A stretch of DNA of 64,000 nt from Myxococcales bacterium (GCA_020633465.1 JACKDN010000006.1:111047-175046), one strand, 5' to 3'; numbered from the stretch's first letter, positions 11,963-20,371 are shown. Numbers and translations: made by a program. Notes: generated by a model from the letters alone, not told the origin.

Positions 11963-12348
11963 AGCCCGTCCTGCTCGATACCCACGTGTTCGTCTGGGCC
12001 CTCACCGCCACCGAGCGCGTGCCCGAGGCGGCGTGGCCCATCCTCCGGGATCCGGAGCGTCGGCTGCTGCTCAGCGTGGCGAGCGCCTGGGAGTTGGCAG
12101 TGAAGTCAGCCCGTGGCCGCATTCGACTGCCCGGTGGCGTCGCCCGCTTCGTCGCCGAGGGCTGCCGTCGAAGCGGGGTCGACCTGCTCGGCGTCGATCT
12201 CGAACACGCCGCCGCGGTCGAGCGCCTGCCTCATCACCACCGTGATCCCTTCGACCGGATGCTCGTCGCGCAGGCGCAGGCCGAGGGCTTCGCGCTGCTC
12301 ACCTACGACCGGGCGTTGGACGCCTACGACGTCGATCGCGTGGGATGA
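11959..12348 (+). CDS. vapC: PIN-domain toxin VapC
   Basis: VLLDTHVFVWAL...SAWELAVKS..., TTG start overlapping antitoxin stop. Confidence 0.8.
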   Translation: MKPVLLDTHVFVWALTATERVPEAAWPILRDPERRLLLSVASAWELAVKSARGRIRLPGGVARFVAEGCRRSGVDLLGVDLEHAAAVERLPHHHRDPFDRMLVAQAQAEGFALLTYDRALDAYDVDRVG

Positions 12349-12443
12349 GCAGAGATGAGCGTCGATTCTGGGCGCGTCGCCCGGCACACCGCTGTTTGCA
12401 TTCCTCACCTGCCGGTCTCACCCTCGGCCTAAGGGAGGTCCGC

Positions 12444-12704
12444 ATGGCGACCGCGACGATGTCGACGAAGGGCCAGATCGTCATTCCCCGCGCCTTGCGC
12501 GAGCAGCTCGGGTGGGCCGCGGGCACCACGCTGAAGGTCGAGGTGCAGGGCAGCGCGCTCGTATTGAGGACGACCCCCGCGGTCGAGCCCACCACCGTCG
12601 ACGACTTGCTCGGGTGCCTCCCCTACGACCGCCGGGCCAAGACGATCGAGGAGATGGACCAGAGTGTCGCCGCCGGCGCCCGAGCGAGCGACGCCTCGCG
12701 ATGA
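12444..12704 (+). CDS. vapB: AbrB/SpoVT-family antitoxin
   Basis: MATATMSTKGQIVIPRALREQLG, AAGGGAGG RBS. Confidence 0.75.
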   Translation: MATATMSTKGQIVIPRALREQLGWAAGTTLKVEVQGSALVLRTTPAVEPTTVDDLLGCLPYDRRAKTIEEMDQSVAAGARASDASR

Positions 12705-13010
12705 CCGCCCTCGACACCCACGTAACTCGTGCGCCTCCTGACGCGAGACGACCCGCAGCAGGCCGCCGTCGCCGCCGAGGTGATGCGCGGCGAAGACCTC
12801 TTCGTCTCGAAGACCGTGTTGCTCGAGCTCGAGTGGGTCCTCCGGTTCACCTATCGATTCGAGGCGGCGGCGATCAACCGCGCGCTGCGGGGGCTGTTAG
12901 GGCTGCCCACGCTCACCGTCGAGGACAGCGCCACGGTGCTGGACGCTCTCGACGCCCACGCCGCCGGCCTGGACTTCGCGGACGCCCTGCATCTGGCCGC
13001 CAGCCCAAAG
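12701..13010 (+). pseudogene. vapC: vapC (PIN) pseudogene: 1-nt frameshift at ~12722 and 3'-truncated by IS insertion at ~13005
   Basis: MTALDTHV then +1 shift to LVRLLTRDDPQQAAVAAE...DFADALHLAAS; the PIN C-terminus is missing. Deleting one A in CACGTAACTCGTG restores the frame. Confidence 0.6.
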
Positions 13011-13251
13011 GTGTTGCCGAGCAGGCTATCCGATGCCGGTCCGCGCAGCCTGCCTGATGGACGCCGCGGCTCGAAGCGAGCACCGCCACGATGGACACCC
13101 AACCGATCGGTGAAACGGCGCCACGGCCGATGCCCACCGCCGGCTGGCGTGCGGCACCACGATAGAGATGGACGTCAGGAGGCTGGCAGCGTGGCGCCAG
13201 CGAGGATGGGCACCGCGGCGGTGGAGGGCGCCGCCGGGGCGGCGATGGCCG

Positions 13252-14058
13252 TCAGTGCTTGTGCACGTTGGCGACGCGCAGGAGCAACTCGCGGTCGACC
13301 TGGGCGTGCTGGCCGCGGGCGGCGGCTTTGAGGGCGGCGGTGGCGATGCGATCGACGTCGCGGAGGCGACCGCCGCAGGCCTCGTGGAGGAGGGCGAGGG
13401 CGTCGGAGCTGAAGAGCATCCGCTCGGTGCCGGCGAGGCGGAGACGGTGGCGCACGTAGGCGGTGGTGTCGCCGGGCTCCGGCTCGGGCAGCCGCAGCCG
13501 GGTGTGGATCCGGCTCCAGAGCGAACGGTTGTGCCGGACGGTCATCCGGTCCCACAGATCGGGCAAGCCGGCGAGCACGAGCGTTAGGAGCGGGCGCGAG
13601 TCCCACTCGTGGTTGGCGAGGATGTGCAGGTGATCGAGGACGTCCTGGTGCAGCAGGTGCGCCTCGTCGATCACGAACACGGGGTGCAGCTGCTCGCAGC
13701 TCAGCTCGTTGACGTACTCGCCGAGCGCGTTGAACACACCGGCGGCGGTCGCCTTCGGGTTCAGTCCGATCGCTCGACAGATGTGGCGGTAGAAGTCGCG
13801 TCGTCCGAGGGTCGCGTTGTGGCAGTAGGTGAGGCGCACAGGGCGGTTGCTCAGCCGGTGACGCAGCACCCGCAGAACGCAGCTCTTGCCCTGGCCGGCC
13901 TCACCGACGATCAGGATGCCGGTCTGCCGCTCCTCGATCGCCTCGACGACCTCGTCCACGGCCGCTTCCTTGGCGGCCGTGAGCCAGAGATCCTGGTCGG
14001 CGATGCTCTTGCCGAAGGGCGCGAGGCGCAGCTCGAAGTGGTCGAGCCAGTACATCAT
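13252..14058 (-). CDS. transposition helper AAA ATPase (TniB/ExeA-like)
   Basis: Walker A ILIVGEAGQGKS, Walker B VFVIDEAH. ATG overlaps tnpA stop (ATGA). Confidence 0.8.
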   Translation of the reverse strand: MMYWLDHFELRLAPFGKSIADQDLWLTAAKEAAVDEVVEAIEERQTGILIVGEAGQGKSCVLRVLRHRLSNRPVRLTYCHNATLGRRDFYRHICRAIGLNPKATAAGVFNALGEYVNELSCEQLHPVFVIDEAHLLHQDVLDHLHILANHEWDSRPLLTLVLAGLPDLWDRMTVRHNRSLWSRIHTRLRLPEPEPGDTTAYVRHRLRLAGTERMLFSSDALALLHEACGGRLRDVDRIATAALKAAARGQHAQVDRELLLRVANVHKH

Positions 14059-15400
14059 GACGCCTCCCGCGACGAGCGCCCGAAGACGCGGTCGAGCAGG
14101 ACGGTCGCCGGATCGAAGGCCACGGTGTCGATGCCGGGCTTCGGCTGGAAGCCCTTGTGCCGCTCGCGCCGCTTGCCGTTGGCGACGGGATCCACGTAGC
14201 GCAGCGGGTGTCGCTTCTCTTCGTGGACCAGGACCGGTGGCGCCTGGGGCTCGAGCAGGCAACGCTCGATGCGCACCATGCGGCCAGCGAGGAAGCGGAG
14301 GTCGGTCTCCCAGTCGACGCCACCGACGCTCAGCGTTCCGTCGCGCCGGACGCGGCGTCGGCCGTGCGCGGTCAGCGCCGTCTGCAGCTCGGCCTCGTCG
14401 AGCGCGCGCAGCGTGCGCTCGGCCCACACCTCGTTCGGGGCGCTCCCCATGAGTCCGCCGTGGGGCGCGCGGTGGTAGTGGGCGTCGAGCCACGCGAGCA
14501 GGCGCACCTGCACGTCGTGCAGTCGCCCGACCTGGCCGATGTGGTCGAGGCAGCCCTCGCGGAGCGTTCGCCAGAAACGCTCCATCTTGCCGCGCGCCTG
14601 GGGATCGTAGGGGCGCGCGTGAACCAGGGAGACGCGCAGTCGGCTGCACGCGGTGGCGAGCATGTCGCCCGTGTAGGTGGGGCCGTTGTCGAGGTAGAGC
14701 GTTCCCGGCGCGCCGAAGCGGCGCAGGGCGCGGCTGAACAGCTCCAGCATCTCGATCTCGCGCTCGGTGCTGCAGGCCATCAGCGCGACGACGTAGCGGG
14801 ACGCGTCGTCGAGGATGGCGTGGATGCGCAGCGGTGTGCGCTGACCGTCGAGGGTCAGGATCGGGCCGTGGCAGACGTCGGCGTGCCACAGTTGGCCGGC
14901 GCGCTCCGCCTGCCAGCGGCGACGCGCCGCGGGATCGTACTGGCGCCGGCGGGGCAGGCGCGGGAGGCCAGCGTCGCGGAACAGCCGACGGACGGTCGAC
15001 GCCGACACCTGCTCGTCGTCGAGGCGCCCGTCGAGCACGAGGGTCCGCAGGATCAGCTCGGCCGAGGCGCTGGGGTGCTCGCGCCGGATGTCGCAGAGCA
15101 GCTGGCGCTGCGCTGCGCCGCGGTCAGGTCGCGGGCGTGGCCGGCGTCGCTGCGGCGGCGCGGCCGCAGCGCGTCGAGGCCGCCGCGCTTGTAGGCGTAG
15201 AACCAACGCTCCATCGTCGAGACGCCGTAGGTCCGCGTGGTGGAGGCGCCGGGCGGGCGGCGCCGGATGCGGCTCATGCGGCGCAGCTCCGCGCGCAGCT
15301 CGCCGTGGCGGAACTCCTGGGTGACGAGCGGTCCGATGATCTGCGCACGGAAGTGTGCGACGGCCTCCGCGTGGTCGCGCGGGGCAAGCTCCAGGGTCAT
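14055..15400 (-). pseudogene. DDE integrase-core (rve) transposase, interrupted by a 5-nt (AGCGC) duplication near 15115
   Basis: N-terminus MTLELAPRDHAEAVAHF...DLTAAQR joins QLLCDIRREH... in another frame. D..D..E core (HADVCHG...LYLDNGPTY...MERFWRTL). GGAGG RBS. Confidence 0.75.
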
Positions 15401-15570
15401 GTCGACCTCCGTTCTTGGGCGCCTTCCAGCAGGCGCCAGGGAGGTTTCGCAGGGTTCGGCGAGCGCCGGCAGGATCCTACCTGGTGGGCTCCTTCCGTCC
15501 GCTGGGCACAGGGGGTGGCCATCACCGAGGTTGCAGGGACGCCGCGAAGATCCGGGCCTGGATGCCGCGC

Positions 15571-15599
15571 CCCGGGACTCTAAGTCCTCCGAAAACACT
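15571..15599 (+). repeat. R motif copy A (terminal hairpin motif CCCCGGGACTCTAAGTCCTCCGAAAACACT)
   Basis: GGACT-cta-AGTCC hairpin core. Identical copies at 17897 and 18423, a degenerate one at 18738. Confidence 0.8.
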
Positions 15600-15790
15600 T
15601 AGCTTTCTGGCCGAGGCCGTCGAGCGGCCGCCCGGGGGACGTCCAGACGGCCGTCTTCGGCCGCCGTCGGGCCGCCTTCCGGTGCTGATCGGGGTCAATG
15701 GGCGCCGGCGCGCCGTATTCGGCGCGCACCTCAGCGTATGCGCGGCGGGGCGCGCGGGGGATGGCGGGTTCGGGAGGGCCGGCGGCGGCG

Positions 15791-16888
15791 TCAGCCGTCG
15801 CCGATCACCCTCGGGGGGTCGCCCCACTTGGCCGGCCAGCGCGGCAGGGGGGCGTCGGGCGGGAGGAAGGGGCCGACGATGGGGGCGTCGTCGAAGGCGT
15901 CGTTGATCACCGGCGGGTAGTCGAAGCCGTCGGGCAGGTCGGTCCAGGGGTGCTCTGGGTCGGCGTCGTCGTGGGTGACGGCGGCGCGGCCCCGCTCGAC
16001 GACCTTGGCCACGGCCGCCATCACGGCGCCGGTGCCCTCGCGGCGGGCTTCGTAGGCGGCTTTGAGCAGCTCGTCGGCCAGCGGGCCCATCGCCGAGAAG
16101 GCGGGGCAGCGGCTGCGCTTCACCTCGGCGGGCTCGTACATGGGCGAGATGGCGAGGGCGGCGGGGACGCCGACGAAGTGCTTGTCGGCGTGGTCGGCGA
16201 CGACGTTGTCGAACACCTTCTTGCAGAAGGCGCGGTACCGCTCGGCGGGGTAGCGCTCCCAGCCGGTCAGCGGCGTCAGCTTGACGATCACCTCGCGGTA
16301 GAAGGGCGTGCGGTCGTCGGGGCGGCCCTTGTCGTCCCAGGCCTGGTAGTCGAACCAGAGGCCGCGCGGGCTCGTGCCGTTCAGCAGGTGGTCGACGCAC
16401 TGCAGGCCGGGCCACTGGTTCGGCCTCGGCGTCACGCCGTCTTTTGTGAGGTGTGCGAGGATGTAGGCGAACCAGAACTCCTCGGCCTCGACGTCGAGGA
16501 TGGTGCTCGCGCGGAAGGGGCCGTCCCACACGGGGCCGGACGTCTCGTAGGTCTTGTGCGTCAGGCGCGCGAAGCCGGCCTTCACGTACTGCATGAACGC
16601 GCTGATGGCGCCGGGGCGGTCCGAGCGCAGCAGGCAGTGGAGGTGGTTCGAAGCCACCACGGCGATCGCGACGTCGACGCCGTACCGGATCTGGGCGCGG
16701 CCGATGATGCCCCACATCAGCAGGACGAACAGGCCGCCCTCCTCGGGCGGGACGAAGGCGTAGCGGCCGCGCACGACCCGGCTGCTCACGTGCACCCAGT
16801 GGCCGCGCGGCATGCAGCGGTGGCGGGGGTTGCGCTTCTTGGCGCGGTAGCGGACGCGGCGGCCGAGGCTCTCGTTGAGGGCGGGCAT
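15791..16888 (-). CDS. HuH-Y1 (IS200/RAYT-like) transposase with ~200-aa C-terminal extension of unknown function
   Basis: VVASNHLHCLL (HuH) and FWFAYILAHLTKDGV (catalytic Tyr, RAYT-like YI..NPVKAGLV). GGAGGAG RBS. Confidence 0.7.
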   Translation of the reverse strand: MPALNESLGRRVRYRAKKRNPRHRCMPRGHWVHVSSRVVRGRYAFVPPEEGGLFVLLMWGIIGRAQIRYGVDVAIAVVASNHLHCLLRSDRPGAISAFMQYVKAGFARLTHKTYETSGPVWDGPFRASTILDVEAEEFWFAYILAHLTKDGVTPRPNQWPGLQCVDHLLNGTSPRGLWFDYQAWDDKGRPDDRTPFYREVIVKLTPLTGWERYPAERYRAFCKKVFDNVVADHADKHFVGVPAALAISPMYEPAEVKRSRCPAFSAMGPLADELLKAAYEARREGTGAVMAAVAKVVERGRAAVTHDDADPEHPWTDLPDGFDYPPVINDAFDDAPIVGPFLPPDAPLPRWPAKWGDPPRVIGDG

Positions 16889-17227
16889 GGGTCTCCTCCG
16901 GGCAAATCGGGGGAGATCCATCGGACAGCGGCGGCGCGTGTTGCGCGGCGGCGGTCGATTTCTCGAATTTCGCTCGACGCGGCGGTCGCGGTCACGGGAG
17001 TTCATCCACCCGCGATCAACCGCTCACTCTCCGTCGGCACGAACGCGACGTCAGGCGCGAGCGCTGCTCGTGCACGGCCCGGTCGGCCAGGCGGGCGCCT
17101 CGCGCCCAGCACGCATGCGAAGCGCCGCCTCCGAGCGTCCGGCGCGACCGGTCGTCAGCCGGGCGCGCGCCGGTAGTGCAGGGCGACCGCGCCGTTGCTG
17201 AGCGGCTTCGCCGAGACCAATACGAGC

Positions 17228-17896
17228 CGTCGTGTGCTGGGTGAGTCTGATACCCAATTCTGGCCCCACTTGAGGGCAAACTGATCTCCAGAAATGGCCC
17301 CACCTCGGCCACAACTACCCCGGAGACGTTGGACGGCGTTTCGGGGGACGGAGATGACCAAGGTGGAGCTGTTCGAAGCTATCAGACGCGATCGACACGT
17401 GCAGCAGAAGAGCGTGCGCGAGATCGCCCGGGATCGCGGGATCCATCGAAGGACGGTGAGGCAGGCGCTCGAGAGCGCGGTGCCGCCGGCGCGGAAGCGG
17501 ACCGAGCGGGAGGCGTCGGTGCTGACCGCGGCCATGCGCCAGCTGATCGACGCGTGGCTCGAGGGGGATCGCGAGGCGCCGCGCAAGCAGCGGCACACGG
17601 CGCGGCGGATCTGGCAGCGGCTGCGCTCGGAGCAGGACTTCCGGGGGGCGGAGTCGACGGTGCGGCGCTACGTCGGGCGGCGACGGCGTGAGCTCGGCGC
17701 CGGCCGCAAGGACGTGACCATGATCCTGGTCCACGAGCCCGGGGCGGAGGCCGAGGTGGACTGGTACGAGGCGGCGGTGGACTTCCCGGGCGGCCGCCAG
17801 ACCGTGCAGGTGTTCGCCATGCGCGCCTGCTACAGCGGCCGGGAGTTCCACATGGCGTTCCCCCGAGCCACGCAGCGCGCGTTCCTCGAGGCCCAC
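17228..17896 (+). mobile_element. IS21-family fragment: left end plus istA codons 1-181, truncated by R copy B
   Basis: TGTGCTGGGTGAG... terminus with GGCCCCAC direct repeats. IstA HTH MTKVELFEAIRR...PRKQRHTARRIWQRL...EVDWYEAAV ends abruptly at ..EAHAQA|R. Confidence 0.75.
17354..17896 (+). pseudogene. istA: istA (IS21 transposase) 5' fragment
   Basis: See above. Confidence 0.8.
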
Positions 17897-18422
17897 GCGC
17901 AGGCGCCCCGGGACTCTAAGTCCTCCGAAAACACTCAGCTTTCTGGCCGAGGCCGTCGAGCGGCCGCTCGTGGGCTGGCCAGACGGCCGACTTCGGCCAC
18001 CGTCGGGCCGACTTCGGGTGCTGATCGGGGTCGATGAGCGCGGCGGCGCCGGCTTCGGCGCGCACATGGGCGACGGCGCGGCGGGGCGCGCGGGGGATGG
18101 CGGGTTCGGGAGGGCCGGCGGCGGCGTCAGCCGTCGCCGATCACCCTCGGGGGGTCGCCCCACTTGGCCGGCCAGTTCGGCAGCGGCGCGTCGGGCGGGA
18201 GGAAGGGGCCGACGATGGGGGCGTCGTCGAAGGCGTCGTTGATCACCGGCGGGTAGTCGAAGCCGTCGGGGAGGTCGGTCCAGGGGTGCTCGGGGTCGGC
18301 GTCGTCGTGGGTGACGGCGGCGCGGCCCTGCTCGACGACCTTGGCCACGGCCGCCATCACGGCGCCGGTGCCCTCGCGGCGGGCTTCGTAGGCGGCCTTT
18401 AGCAGTTCGTCGGCCAGGGCGC
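17897..18422 (+). repeat. partial copy B of element X 3' end (R plus 3' part of the Y1 gene)
   Basis: Encodes orphan Y1 C-terminus LADELLKAAYEARREG...PRVIGDG (ORF 18127..18450). Confidence 0.8.
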
Positions 18423-18766
18423 CCCGGGACTCTAAGTCCTCCGAAAACACTCAGCTTTCTGGCTGAGGCCGTCGAGCGGCCGCCCGGGGGACGTCCAGAC
18501 GGCCACGCTCGGCCCCCGTTGGGCCGCCTTCCGGTGCTGATCGGGCTCGATGGGCGCCGGCGCGCCGGATTCGGCGCGCACCTCGGCGCGACGGCGCGGC
18601 GGGACGCGGGGCGGATGGCGGGTTCGAGAGGGCCGGCGGCGGCGTCAGCCGTCGCCGATCGACCCGGGGTCGCCGCCACTTAGCCGGCCAACGCGGCAGC
18701 GGGCGTCGGCGGGAGGAAGGGGCCGACGATGGGGGCGCCCCGGAACCTGCTCAAGTCCTCCGAAAC
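18423..18766 (+). repeat. partial copy C of element X 3' end (diverged, internally deleted), followed by degenerate R copy D (18738..18766)
   Basis: Alignment to 15571..15895. R_D = CCCCGGAACCTGCTCAAGTCCTCCGAAAC. Confidence 0.7.
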
Positions 18767-19146
18767 GTCGAGGAGCTTGCCGCTGCCGAGGAGCACGCCG
18801 GCCGGGTCGCGTCCTTGAGCGTCTGCACGCTGCTGCAAAGGTCGCCGGCGATGTGGTGGCTGTTGGTCCACGGGAAGCGGGTTCGCGTCGACGACACGAC
18901 GTACTTCGGCTTGGCTTCCAGCTTGACCGCCCACTCGCGGATCGCAGGCGGGGCCTCCTCGTCACCGCGGGCGACCGCCGGCCAGTAGCTCTCCATCATC
19001 TCGTAGGTGACGCGGCCCCACAGCATCGCCCCGCCCTCGTCCATGAGGCGGGTAAAGAAGGCGTGCGTCTCGTCGTCGGCGATGCCCTCTTGGTGGTCGA
19101 CGCATCCGTCGAGGGTGACGTTGAGGCCGAAGGTCAGAAGTCCCAT
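18767..19146 (-). pseudogene. RibD C-terminal-domain/DHFR-family protein, internal frameshift and 3'-truncated at R copy D
   Basis: MGLLTFGLNVTLDG...WPAV...KPKYVVSSTR...NSHHIAGDL..LKDATRPAG/VLLGSGKLLD, then the ORF ends at R_D. Confidence 0.65.
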
Positions 19147-19219
19147 GCGAGTCCACTCCAGGCCGTGCTCGGTGCCAGGCAGATAGGGGAGGCAGGTCGT
19201 CGGCGACGGCGCCCCCGCG

Positions 19220-20371
19220 CTACTGCGCGTCCTTGCTGCGCGCGTGGTGGCGCACGATGAAGTCGGCCACCGCGTCCCAGGTGCGCGCGAACGCGTGCCG
19301 ATCGAAGGCCGAGTGCGTCATCAGCCAGTCGTGGTGCGGGGGGTCGCGGCCGGTGTCGCCGAAGTGGCCGATGACGTCGAGGTGATCGGCCCACACGGCC
19401 GCGAGCACCTCGCCGTGCACCTGCGAGAGCGTGGGCACCACGGCGTCGTTGTCGGTGGTGCTGGGCGCGGTGCCGAAGGCGCGGGTGAGCGTGGTCACCT
19501 GCTCCGAGGTGGCGCGCGCGGCGGCGGGCGCGGCGGCGGCGATGCCGTGCAGCACGCGGTAGAGCGCATAGCCCACCTGGCCGGAGGGCGAGAGCCCGGT
19601 GCTCATCATCCCCCGCAGGCGGGGCGGTCGGGCGCGGGTGACCACGCAGCCGTAGCGCACCGATCGGCGGTCGCTGGTGCGCGCGTCGAACAGGTCCATC
19701 GCTTCGGGGCCGAGCTGGGCCATCAGCGCCTGGTCGCCGATCACCTGGCCGAGGAACGCGACGATCTGGGCGCGCCGGTCGGCGGAGAAGTCCTGCAGGA
19801 TGCCCTGGTACACCGAGTCGATCAGGCCGCCTTGCAGCTCGGTCAGGCGGCGCGGCAGCGCCAGCGCCTCGGCCAGCGCCACCATCGCAGGCAGGGGCAC
19901 GCCGCCGAGGCGGATGGCGTGGATGGTGATCGCCGACACCAACTGGAGCAGCTTCTGCCCCATGCGGCTGTTGAAGTAGCTCGCCGTCGGCGTGCCGTGG
20001 TGCGGCGTGGCCACCGTCACCACCGAGCGCACGCGCCGCGCGATGCCCTCGACGCTGGCCGCCGTGGGCAGCGTGACGCCCGGCGTCACCAGCAGGCGCG
20101 CGTCGAGGCCGCCGGTGGAGTGGCCGACGAGGTGGATGCCGCCCGGCTCGACGGCGCCCATCGCGATGGCGTCGGCGACGGCCGCGGCGCGCTCCCGCAG
20201 CGAGGCCGTCGGCGGCACGGGCGCGTGCACGACCCGCACGTCGAGTCCGCGCGTCGCCAGCGCGTCGCGCAGGTAGCGCTCGACGTGGCCGAAGTAGCGG
20301 AAGTCGCCCAGGTTGGCGAATCCGAAGAAGCCCGGCACCAGCACCACGTGTCCTGATGGGCGCGTCCCCAC
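19220..20371 (-). CDS. secreted lipase/alpha-beta hydrolase (triacylglycerol lipase-like)
   Basis: HLVGHSTGG nucleophile motif. GTG start with GAGGAGG RBS. Confidence 0.75.
   Translation of the reverse strand: MGTRPSGHVVLVPGFFGFANLGDFRYFGHVERYLRDALATRGLDVRVVHAPVPPTASLRERAAAVADAIAMGAVEPGGIHLVGHSTGGLDARLLVTPGVTLPTAASVEGIARRVRSVVTVATPHHGTPTASYFNSRMGQKLLQLVSAITIHAIRLGGVPLPAMVALAEALALPRRLTELQGGLIDSVYQGILQDFSADRRAQIVAFLGQVIGDQALMAQLGPEAMDLFDARTSDRRSVRYGCVVTRARPPRLRGMMSTGLSPSGQVGYALYRVLHGIAAAAPAAARATSEQVTTLTRAFGTAPSTTDNDAVVPTLSQVHGEVLAAVWADHLDVIGHFGDTGRDPPHHDWLMTHSAFDRHAFARTWDAVADFIVRHHARSKDAQ

Follow-up and report, generated by a model that had tools for sequence, protein, structure and literature searches.

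The window analyzed here is a stretch of 64,000 nucleotides from a metagenome-assembled genome (MAG) of a Myxococcales bacterium (GCA_020633465.1, JACKDN010000006.1:111047-175046), and window coordinates are counted from its first nucleotide. It contains a minus-strand gene for a Y1 HUH transposase-like protein of 365 amino acid residues (15791-16888, stop codon included), accompanied by truncated copies of the same gene and by four copies of a short motif, R. The protein is identical to P0164 (GenBank MCB9536002.1, "MAG: transposase [Myxococcales bacterium]") and matches the Pfam family Y1_Tnp (PF01797) with 25.7 bits, above the cutoff of 23 bits. In the orientation of the gene, every copy ends on its 3' side in R (...AAAGCTGAGTGTTTTCGGAGGACTTAGAGTCCCGGGGCGC), and the flank comes next. 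In the window and on contigs from other assemblies, the 3' end of the copies is always R, while their 5' extent ranges from ~30 nucleotides to more than 2.1 kb. The locus may thus be described as a putative single-strand mobile element with one constant end.

R is found as an exact 33-mer, GCGCCCCGGGACTCTAAGTCCTCCGAAAACACT, at three sites on the plus strand (window 15567, 17903 and 18419), and it had no match in 100 shuffles of the sequence. The first of these belongs to the copy that carries the whole gene, copy A. This R (15567-15609, minus strand), which ends in gene orientation with ..CCAGAAAGCTAAGTGTTTTCGGAGGACTTAGAGTCCCGGGGCGC before the flank, is matched by the 33-mer and also by a 43-nucleotide profile (E 1.7e-15). 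A degenerate fourth copy, R' (GTTTCGGAGGACTTGAGCAGGTTCCGGGGCG(C); 18736-18765, minus strand; nhmmer E 0.16), directly touches the truncated end of one of the partial copies, copy C. These are the only R copies in the 64-kb window, and all lie within the Y1 element locus. A possible fifth, very degenerate R right behind a DHFR stop codon (window ~17095-17157) scored too weakly to be claimed. An initial annotation had placed R at four junctions, which is borne out by the three exact sites and the degenerate one, with coordinates that were off by 4-6 nucleotides. As it had also stated, the plus-strand DNA to the right of all three exact sites is homologous and corresponds to the 3' untranslated region (UTR) and the 3' coding part of the minus-strand Y1 gene (alignment A1 and self-BLAST). 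The outer flanks do differ, the R of copy A being adjoined by the 5' region of an IS481-like DDE element and that of copy B by an IS21-family istA gene. The flank given for R' has to be reversed: the DHFR-family gene, whose 5' part ends at R', lies on its inner side, and the truncated end of copy C on its outer side, so that R' is a solo end of ~30 nucleotides.

Copy A comprises R, the 3' UTR (15610-15790, minus strand, aligned with copies B and C), the Y1 gene and a conserved leader (CGAGAAATCGACC..CGCGCAACACGCGC..GCTGTCCGATGGATC..GGAGGAGACCC, then ATG; 16889-16976, minus strand). The leader begins ~88 nucleotides before the ATG and is kept in L001, L003, L004, L014 and L015 (contigs from other assemblies are given by such L numbers). 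Further upstream there is a remnant of the 3' end of a gene for a PIN-like toxin, DUF5615 (..LAPDVAFVPTESERLIAGG*; 16977-17064, minus strand), which is part of the transposed unit. Homologous sequence precedes the Y1 gene in L014 and L015, where the 3' end of DUF5615 is intact, and also, as a degenerate remnant, the first Y1 copy of L015. The copies with a remnant lie in different contexts, downstream of the DHFR-family gene in the window and downstream of an unrelated gene, read as Uma2-like, in L015. Since copy A and copy 1 of L015 share the remnant, copy A, which had been annotated as complete and does carry the whole Y1 gene, is itself a 5'-truncated form of a unit [DUF433-DUF5615-Y1-R]. 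The homology break ~88 nucleotides before the ATG was considered as a left end and rejected, because the DUF5615 remnant further upstream is common to L014, L015 and the window.

Copy B (17903-18418, minus strand) is 5'-truncated and has 516 nucleotides. It consists of R (17903-17935), the UTR up to 18126, the stop codon (18127-18129) and the last 96 codons up to 18418, and its open reading frame (ORF) is H6704_07030. It starts at CTGGCCGAC. Copy C (18419-18735, minus strand), also 5'-truncated, has 317 nucleotides and is composed of R (18419-18451), the UTR, the stop codon (18645-18647) and ~88 nucleotides of decayed coding sequence. By self-BLAST, copy B is 93.3% identical to copy A over 522 nucleotides, and copy C is 90.2% identical to A and 87.7% to B; no further fragment of the element was found elsewhere in the 64-kb window. 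These values replace the 526 bp and ~97% first given for copy B and the ~315 bp and ~87% first given for copy C. Copies A and B share 203 of 224 nucleotides over the UTR and R, and they have 10 differences in 291 coding nucleotides, which affect seven codons synonymously and two non-synonymously. The mostly synonymous differences and the more diverged UTR indicate that copy B comes from a separately evolving lineage under selection.

On either side of the array lies one half of a DHFR-family (RibD_C) gene; both halves are on one strand and follow each other in the right order. The 5' part (18766-19146, minus strand), which covers residues 1 to ~131, ends at R' and has a 1-nucleotide frameshift at ~18810; it was identified by a RibD_C match and by alignment to homologs of 186 residues. 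The last 25 codons and the stop codon (17158-17233, minus strand), split off by the IS21-family insertion sequence (IS), align with residues 162-186 of the 186-residue homologs P0190 and P0193 and lie immediately beside the IS21 left end. The IS21-family segment (17234-17902, plus strand) is made of this left end and the first 183 codons of istA, which starts at 17354 (NCBIfam transpos_IS21, 124 bits, profile positions 1-169 of 294). It is cut exactly at the R of copy B, which thereby adjoins an internal point of istA, profile position 169. One deletion from the end of this R into istA would explain why the right-hand part of the IS21 element and DHFR codons 132-161 are both missing.

Truncated units on other contigs

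The R profile was searched with nhmmer in the window and in 11 contigs from other assemblies, which gave 24 strong and ~5 degenerate copies with at least 18 different outer flanks. R scans of a genome collection found three loci only, and those of a metagenome and a viral collection found none; a protein-based scan of the metagenomes added one close locus only, L009. The head-to-tail arrangement of 5'-truncated units, as initially annotated in the window, is found on eight other contigs (L002, L003, L006, L007, L008, L013, L014 and L015), so that it is recurrent in the element family and no peculiarity of the locus. In L003, R is followed by a 57-nucleotide truncated unit that ends in R at the contig end. 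There is a 49-nucleotide unit behind R in L008, a unit of ~120 nucleotides in L006, and a 119-nucleotide unit in L002, where R and the unit are separated by a 'G' and two Ns. L007 has a 467-nucleotide unit without a preceding R, then a unit of ~145 nucleotides, and then a solo R 1.3 kb off. L013, which contains three successive units, begins at the exact start nucleotide of window copy B. L014 is composed of a UTR with its R (R1), a 452-nucleotide unit that ends in R2, a 5'-truncated DUF5615 gene and the Y1 gene, and L015 of a degenerate R, a Y1 copy that ends in R, an intact DUF433-DUF5615 pair and a second Y1 copy. A truncated unit stands directly behind another R in the window (twice), L003, L006, L007, L008, L013 (twice) and L014. 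Contigs L001, L003 and L009 end at or inside R and L004 ends 11 nucleotides past it, as is expected of assemblers when a repeat has several different continuations.

The shortest units are solo ends of ~30 nucleotides, R' in the window and positions 7120-7156 of L007. Units of intermediate length have 49 (L008), 57 (L003), ~120-145 (L002, L006 and L007), 317 and 516 (window), ~410 (L013), 452 (L014) and 467 nucleotides (L007). Window copy A and copy 1 of L015 are Y1-only units with a DUF5615 remnant, which is weaker in L003. The longest unit, in L015, comprises an intact DUF433-DUF5615 toxin-antitoxin pair and the Y1 gene. DUF5615 is preserved in front of the Y1 gene in both L014 and L015, the gene of L014 being 5'-truncated with its 3' end intact. 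No conserved hairpin was found at the 5' ends of the units, as would follow from the lack of a fixed 5' end.

Two further structures stand out on L015 and L014. Between R and the start of DUF433 in L015 (6323-6350) there are two palindromes, GACCCCCGGGGTC and GCCATCCG-CAAGA-CGGATGGC, which could serve as the operator of the antitoxin or mark where the longest unit really starts. In L014, a 166-nucleotide insert (1906-2070) splits the Y1 gene exactly at ATGGGCCC|CTGGCC, the point at which window copy B and L013 start. The insert opens with a degenerate R-like end, CGGGAGCCTGTTGCGCAGTCGGGGCGC, and holds a long inverted repeat, GCGAGAGCA..GGCGATACC / GGTATCG..TGCTCTCGC.

One locus is represented by both L014 and L015. 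R is continued in L015 by GGCGCGACC..., DUF433 and DUF5615, whereas in L014 an R borders on an internal part of DUF5615 (source ...CATCGAC|GCCCAGCTG), which makes a second R-adjacent deletion beside that of the window. In every case, the deletion end point is the last nucleotide of R. Units 1 and 2 of L014 are 88.8% identical to each other; unit 1 matches L008 at 95.7% and copy 1 of L015 at 94.2% identity, and unit 2 matches unit 1 of L013 at 99.5%. Unit 2 of L006 likewise has an identity of 84% to its neighbor and of 93-94% to L004 and L002. Adjacent units are therefore often of different lineages, which indicates that they are often not local duplicates. The 49-nucleotide repeat of L008 and the 57-nucleotide repeat of L003 are identical to their neighbors and may be local.

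For eight junctions with an identifiable source, the R end was compared base by base with the source sequence that immediately precedes the breakpoint. Counted as identical bases, the microhomology amounts to 1, 3, 3, 2, 3, 1, 3 and 1 nucleotides, where ~0.4 nucleotides would be expected by chance in this GC-rich DNA according to a rough estimate. The source reads CGC|, like R, at four of the eight junctions, or at five when a point change in one R end is allowed for. From the sequences of these junctions, the microhomology would fit a short recognition sequence, such as the target tetranucleotides of IS608 and IS91, and microhomology-guided joining equally well.

The MAG itself holds two full-length and at least five partial copies of the Y1 gene. 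The second full-length gene, H6704_10285, encodes 364 residues that are 79% identical and belongs to a sister subfamily. Beside it there is a 76-residue fragment ORF, H6704_10280, which is identical to the C-terminus of H6704_10285 and thus points to a recent event. Further Y1 fragments are H6704_09975 and H6704_25445.

Two side observations concern the contigs themselves. The contigs with near-identical R units (L006, L007/L008) were assigned to Verrucomicrobiia, 'bacterium' and Planctomycetota, and all other protein clusters are from Myxococcales, which points either to short repeat contigs placed in the wrong bin or to an element that is transferred horizontally. In L002 (1-340), binned as Planctomycetota, the sequence ahead of the Y1 copy reads as an IS66-family element's C-terminal end with its terminal repeat, to which the Y1 leader seems to have been lost, and the Y1 gene has an internal deletion or frameshift (ORFs of 249 and 99 residues).

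The Y1 protein and its family

The initial assignment of the gene to the Y1/HUH transposases, made from its sequence, agrees with the predicted structure of the protein. The AlphaFold model (pLDDT 81.5, pTM 0.80) has as its top PDB matches in Foldseek the RAYT, ISDra2, IS608 and IS200 transposases (4er8, 2xma, 2vjv and 2f4f), and a single tyrosine is conserved in the catalytic helix. By its modeled fold, the enzyme is assigned to the Y1 HUH superfamily; a PDB sequence search with the protein gave a chance-level match only. The C-terminal extension, which comprises residues ~160-330, is predicted to be folded with confidence. The best NCBIfam match, REP_Tyr_transpos, scores 31.6 bits, far under the family cutoff of 80 bits.

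An exhaustive HMMER search returned 1227 cluster representatives at E<1e-3 and 419 at E<1e-10. The relatives are mostly of ~310 residues and align with residues ~24-280 of the query. Since the long C-terminal extension is common to at least 419 protein clusters of ~310 residues, it is a family trait and not, as first thought, an unusual feature of this protein. Pfam Y1_Tnp was detected in nine of ten tested family members (E up to 0.01), eight of them at or over 23 bits. In 19 relatives, residues R24, H82, H84 (NHxH; NHLH here), Y142 and W159 are invariant, and the tyrosine motif is Y-[IV]-[LI]-x-[HQ], with YILAH in the window protein; the RAYT motif Y---NP is absent. The ~310-residue family fits no subclass signature of the 2018 classification of TnpA-Y1 proteins (PMC6006769). 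The dN/dS ratio between close full-length copies is 0.10-0.13, which indicates that the full-length gene is maintained by purifying selection. The R motif and the arrays were seen in the close subfamily only (at least 50% identity), in which the 50%-identity relative L009 still keeps GGACT-NAG-AGTC, and the distant relatives L010 and L011, on long contigs, have no 3' arrays.

On the minus strand of L008 (1261-2257), tail-to-tail with the R array, there is a paralog of 311 residues with 23% identity to the window protein and a weak Y1_Tnp match. Its leader, CGCGCAACACGCGC..GGCTGTCCGATAGG..GGAGGAACCC ATG, is nearly identical to that of copy A. The leader is thus better conserved than the protein, and it may be a regulatory or recognition site common to the wider family. 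In L010 (5630-5762), three to four tandem copies of a 58-59-nucleotide repeat lie just upstream of the gene of a distant relative (30% identity).

Candidate mechanisms and related systems

In the mechanism that we prefer, the locus would be a single-strand (HUH, Y1) mobile element whose sole constant cis-acting site is the 3' terminal motif R. The 365-residue enzyme would nick one strand where R meets its outer flank (gene strand, ...GGGGCGC|), and the nicked R end would be joined to a 5' end that arises either from a second R boundary or from a similar site ending in CGC. The chemistry would be of the IS608 type with both cleavages of the right-end type, which would make a defined left end unnecessary, and a circular intermediate may be formed. 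Two outcomes are predicted. Units would integrate directly behind a resident R and build head-to-tail arrays, or the DNA downstream of R would be excised, which would truncate on the 5' side whatever lies there, the next unit included. For the window, a short R' unit would have entered the DHFR-family gene, which also carries the IS21-family insertion; unit C and then unit B would have been added at R ends; and the single deletion from the R of B into istA would have followed. Copy A, a unit truncated inside its DUF5615 gene, sits 93 nucleotides downstream of the DHFR stop codon. The one-ended activity or integration at an R-like site that had initially been suggested would both be compatible with these data, but part of the pattern is a deletion downstream of R. 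Judged from the sequences, we consider nicking of single-stranded DNA by the Y1 enzyme at the R boundary, and joining to another R boundary or CGC-like site, a serious candidate, with a probability that stays a little under even.

Several points weigh against this mechanism. No left-end structure was identified, and no empty site, circle junction or before/after pair of a clean insertion was found. The difference between L014 and L015 is a replacement (452 nucleotides gained, ~334 lost) and no simple insertion. The IS200/IS605 transposases known so far act as dimers and require a hairpin at both ends, and we know of no experimental precedent for a one-site reaction by a Y1 enzyme. The hairpin GGACT/AGTCC, which the initial annotation had put at the core of R, is compatible with the sequences, but it would be a weak one, of five base pairs (or six in an alternative stem). 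Single-strand folding of R and of the leader gave z ~0 relative to shuffled sequences, and pair counts showed no significant covariation for either GGACT/AGTCC or CTRAGT/ACTYAG; the GGACT/AGTCC element may instead act as a sequence motif. CGC at only four or five of eight junctions leaves a sequence-specific pseudo-site unproven, and the microhomology alone would fit repair-type joining as well. Several of the supporting contigs are short-read metagenome assemblies of repeats, with an 'NN' inside the array of L002. In further checks, inspection of alignment A6 gave no covariation between the four nucleotides before the stem and the terminal nucleotides, as a guide/cleavage-site complementarity of the IS608 kind would show, and Rfam had no match in window 15300-19300.

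A rolling-circle, one-ended transposition similar to that of IS91/ISCR, which we hold to be unlikely, would have its origin in R, on the complement of the gene strand (5'-GCG|CCCCGGGACTC...). There the enzyme would become attached to the 5' end, the complement strand would be displaced towards the gene, integration would occur at the nick site of a resident R, and transfer would stop at GCG-like sites, early to give truncated units and late to capture the toxin-antitoxin pair. Y2 and zinc-finger domains mark IS91 transposases, whereas this enzyme has one catalytic tyrosine and an IS200/RAYT-type fold, and Pfam found Y1_Tnp only. Failure of termination in IS91 leads to longer products, but short ones predominate here, and copy-out would not lead directly to R-adjacent deletions. 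In layout the element follows IS91, with a constant end downstream of the transposase gene that has a short specific sequence, a variable other end and co-mobilized adjacent DNA, and the bottom strand is the active one in IS91 (PMC13181058). The sequence GCG stands before the R core on the opposite strand in nearly all copies and four to five of the eight variable ends finish in GCG, but CGC and GCG are complementary, so that the strand cannot be read from the junctions. Divergence from copy A is greatest in the decayed R', smaller in C and smallest in B, as would fit units inserted one after another at an R nick site. R could also be a protein-induced fragile site, at whose boundary the Y1 enzyme, or a structure of R itself, causes a nick or fork stall and, in consequence, fork collapse and microhomology-mediated template switching. 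Upstream sequence would then be copied to give duplications, downstream sequence to give deletions, and a distant copy to give heterologous units, and only full units, if any, would transpose. There is microhomology of 1-3 nucleotides at every resolvable junction; duplications, deletions and replacements all begin at the same nucleotide; the replacement between L014 and L015 looks like that of a double template switch; and the identical tandem duplications of 49 and 57 nucleotides in L008 and L003 look local. Heterologous neighbors are nevertheless frequent, and the solo ends of ~30 nucleotides and the truncated unit without a preceding R (L007) sit in unrelated DNA. The 5' breakpoint CTGGCCGAC occurs in three contexts, which suggests that truncated units propagate, and we regard this explanation, too, as improbable. 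Peel-and-paste transposition, rolling-circle transposition and nick-induced template switching cannot be separated by sequence alone.

The remaining explanations invoke less. An ordinary two-ended IS might prefer to insert beside its own right end, with truncations due to later unrelated decay by deletions, other IS activity or homologous recombination. The window region is full of IS debris (IS481-like, IS21-family, a split DHFR gene), and the conserved leader of ~88 nucleotides could pass for a left end. Random decay would not predict, however, that deletions always end at the last nucleotide of R, nor does a left end at the leader agree with a DUF5615 remnant that lies upstream of it and travels with the gene into different contexts. 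Truncated copies also outnumber full ones, and assemblies break at R and not on the 5' side, all of which leaves little room for an ordinary IS. An assembly artefact, that is, a collapsed or chimeric repeat, has to be weighed since the window is from a MAG and some supporting contigs are short, one of them with NN. The pattern recurs across independent samples and assemblers, the three window copies differ by 7-12% and are thus not duplicated reads of one copy, and the order and common strand of the DHFR halves around the array argue against a chimera, which makes an artefact highly improbable. Two other candidates were rejected. A tyrosine recombinase, which an integron attC or Xer/dif-type site would call for, is absent, and R shows no evident likeness to dif; a retroelement-like 5' truncation would require a reverse transcriptase, of which there is none in or beside the units.

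Y1 HUH transposases are known in two settings, the strictly two-ended IS200/IS605 elements and the single-copy RAYT genes tied to REP sequences. The element resembles IS200/IS605 members such as IS608 and ISDra2 in its Y1_Tnp domain, with an H-u-H motif and a single tyrosine, and in a predicted fold like that of the IS608, ISDra2 and IS200 TnpA proteins. It also has no terminal inverted repeats and no visible target duplication, and a short conserved motif, possibly a small hairpin, lies 8 nucleotides inside its 3' end. TnpA of IS200/IS605 has ~130-160 residues, the core domain only, and a Y---Q motif (PMC6006769, Table 1), in contrast to 365 residues with a folded C-terminal extension of ~200 residues and Y-I-L-A-H in the window protein. 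The element differs further in that no left-end hairpin was found, and by the lack of a fixed left end or length and of a tnpB gene, its arrays and its R-adjacent deletions. While IS200/IS605 elements insert 3' of a specific tetra- or pentanucleotide, the 5' flanks here end in CGC in four to five of the eight resolvable cases.

The model of the protein is closest in structure to the E. coli RAYT in complex with a REP hairpin (4er8). As in the RAYT/TnpA-REP systems a short repeat is tied to the gene, and some sources name relatives 'RayT'. However, the RAYT signature is Y---NP (PMC6006769), which is absent here, and the score of 31.6 bits stands against a cutoff of 80. The gene is multi-copy in different contexts instead of being one domesticated copy. 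Moreover, R is found only 3' of the gene, in direct orientation and on gene fragments, while REPs are inverted pairs that flank the gene or are dispersed by the hundreds. IS91 elements have functionally distinct ends, a constant end downstream of the transposase gene and one-ended transposition (PMC13181058). The element shares with IS91/ISCR the variable or dispensable upstream end, the co-mobilized upstream DNA (here DUF433-DUF5615) and the lack of inverted repeats, but it has a Y1 enzyme with an IS200/RAYT fold, for which the Pfam scan gave no Y2 or zinc-finger match, and its products are mostly shorter than the element and form tandem arrays at the constant end. One-ended behavior likens the element to IS91/ISCR and confers no membership. 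The element fails defining features of IS200/IS605, of RAYT/REPtrons and of IS91/ISCR alike. Its nearest likeness in protein is the family of ~310 residues, annotated as 'transposase' or 'RayT', with the same C-terminal extension and invariant residues. A literature search, which had ISfinder outside its scope and is no proof of absence, found no description of such one-ended behavior for a Y1 element.

We tentatively suggest, as a possibility short of a likelihood, a new class of HUH element that would combine a Y1 (IS200/RAYT-fold) enzyme, with its large extra domain, and R as the sole cis element. The DNA between two direct R copies would be a mobilizable cassette that integrates at a resident R into integron-like head-to-tail arrays, captures upstream genes (here a toxin-antitoxin pair) and deletes R-adjacent DNA, and the ~310-residue Y1 family would be active one-ended transposases and not domesticated RAYT-like genes. 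One-ended gene capture by ISCR elements is important for the spread of resistance genes. If true, a Y1 enzyme with one-ended, IS91/ISCR-like behavior would connect branches of HUH transposition, would suggest that one-ended gene capture evolved more than once, and would give a first functional handle on a large Y1 family of ~310-365 residues that is annotated by similarity only. With one protein and a defined site of 43 nucleotides, the hypothesis lends itself directly to tests in vitro, and the R-adjacent deletions show the element reshaping neighboring genes.

Neighboring genes

The R of copy A is flanked by an IS481-like DDE transposase gene followed by an ExeA-like AAA ATPase gene (13252-15566, minus strand; Pfam rve and AAA_22, NCBIfam transpos_IS481 172 bits). 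These genes are a flank and no part of the element. The IS481-like gene is frameshifted near 15120 as assembled, the ATPase gene after it is similar to ExeA/TIGR03015, and no terminal inverted repeat was found for this IS481-like element. Beyond it (window 12345-13100), translations suggest an AbrB/SpoVT-like antitoxin ORF and a PIN (VapC-like) toxin ORF, the latter of which appears to extend abnormally far at its 3' end. The 27 nucleotides just outside the R of copy A (15532-15559) resemble the 'GLDFADALHLA' region of this VapC-like gene at 12965-12991.

The DHFR-family gene has homologs of 186 residues with 87-95% identity in Eisenbacteria, Steroidobacteraceae, Kribbella, Cupriavidus and Planctomycetota, among thousands of member sequences. 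This unusually high conservation across taxa suggests that the gene is itself horizontally mobile.

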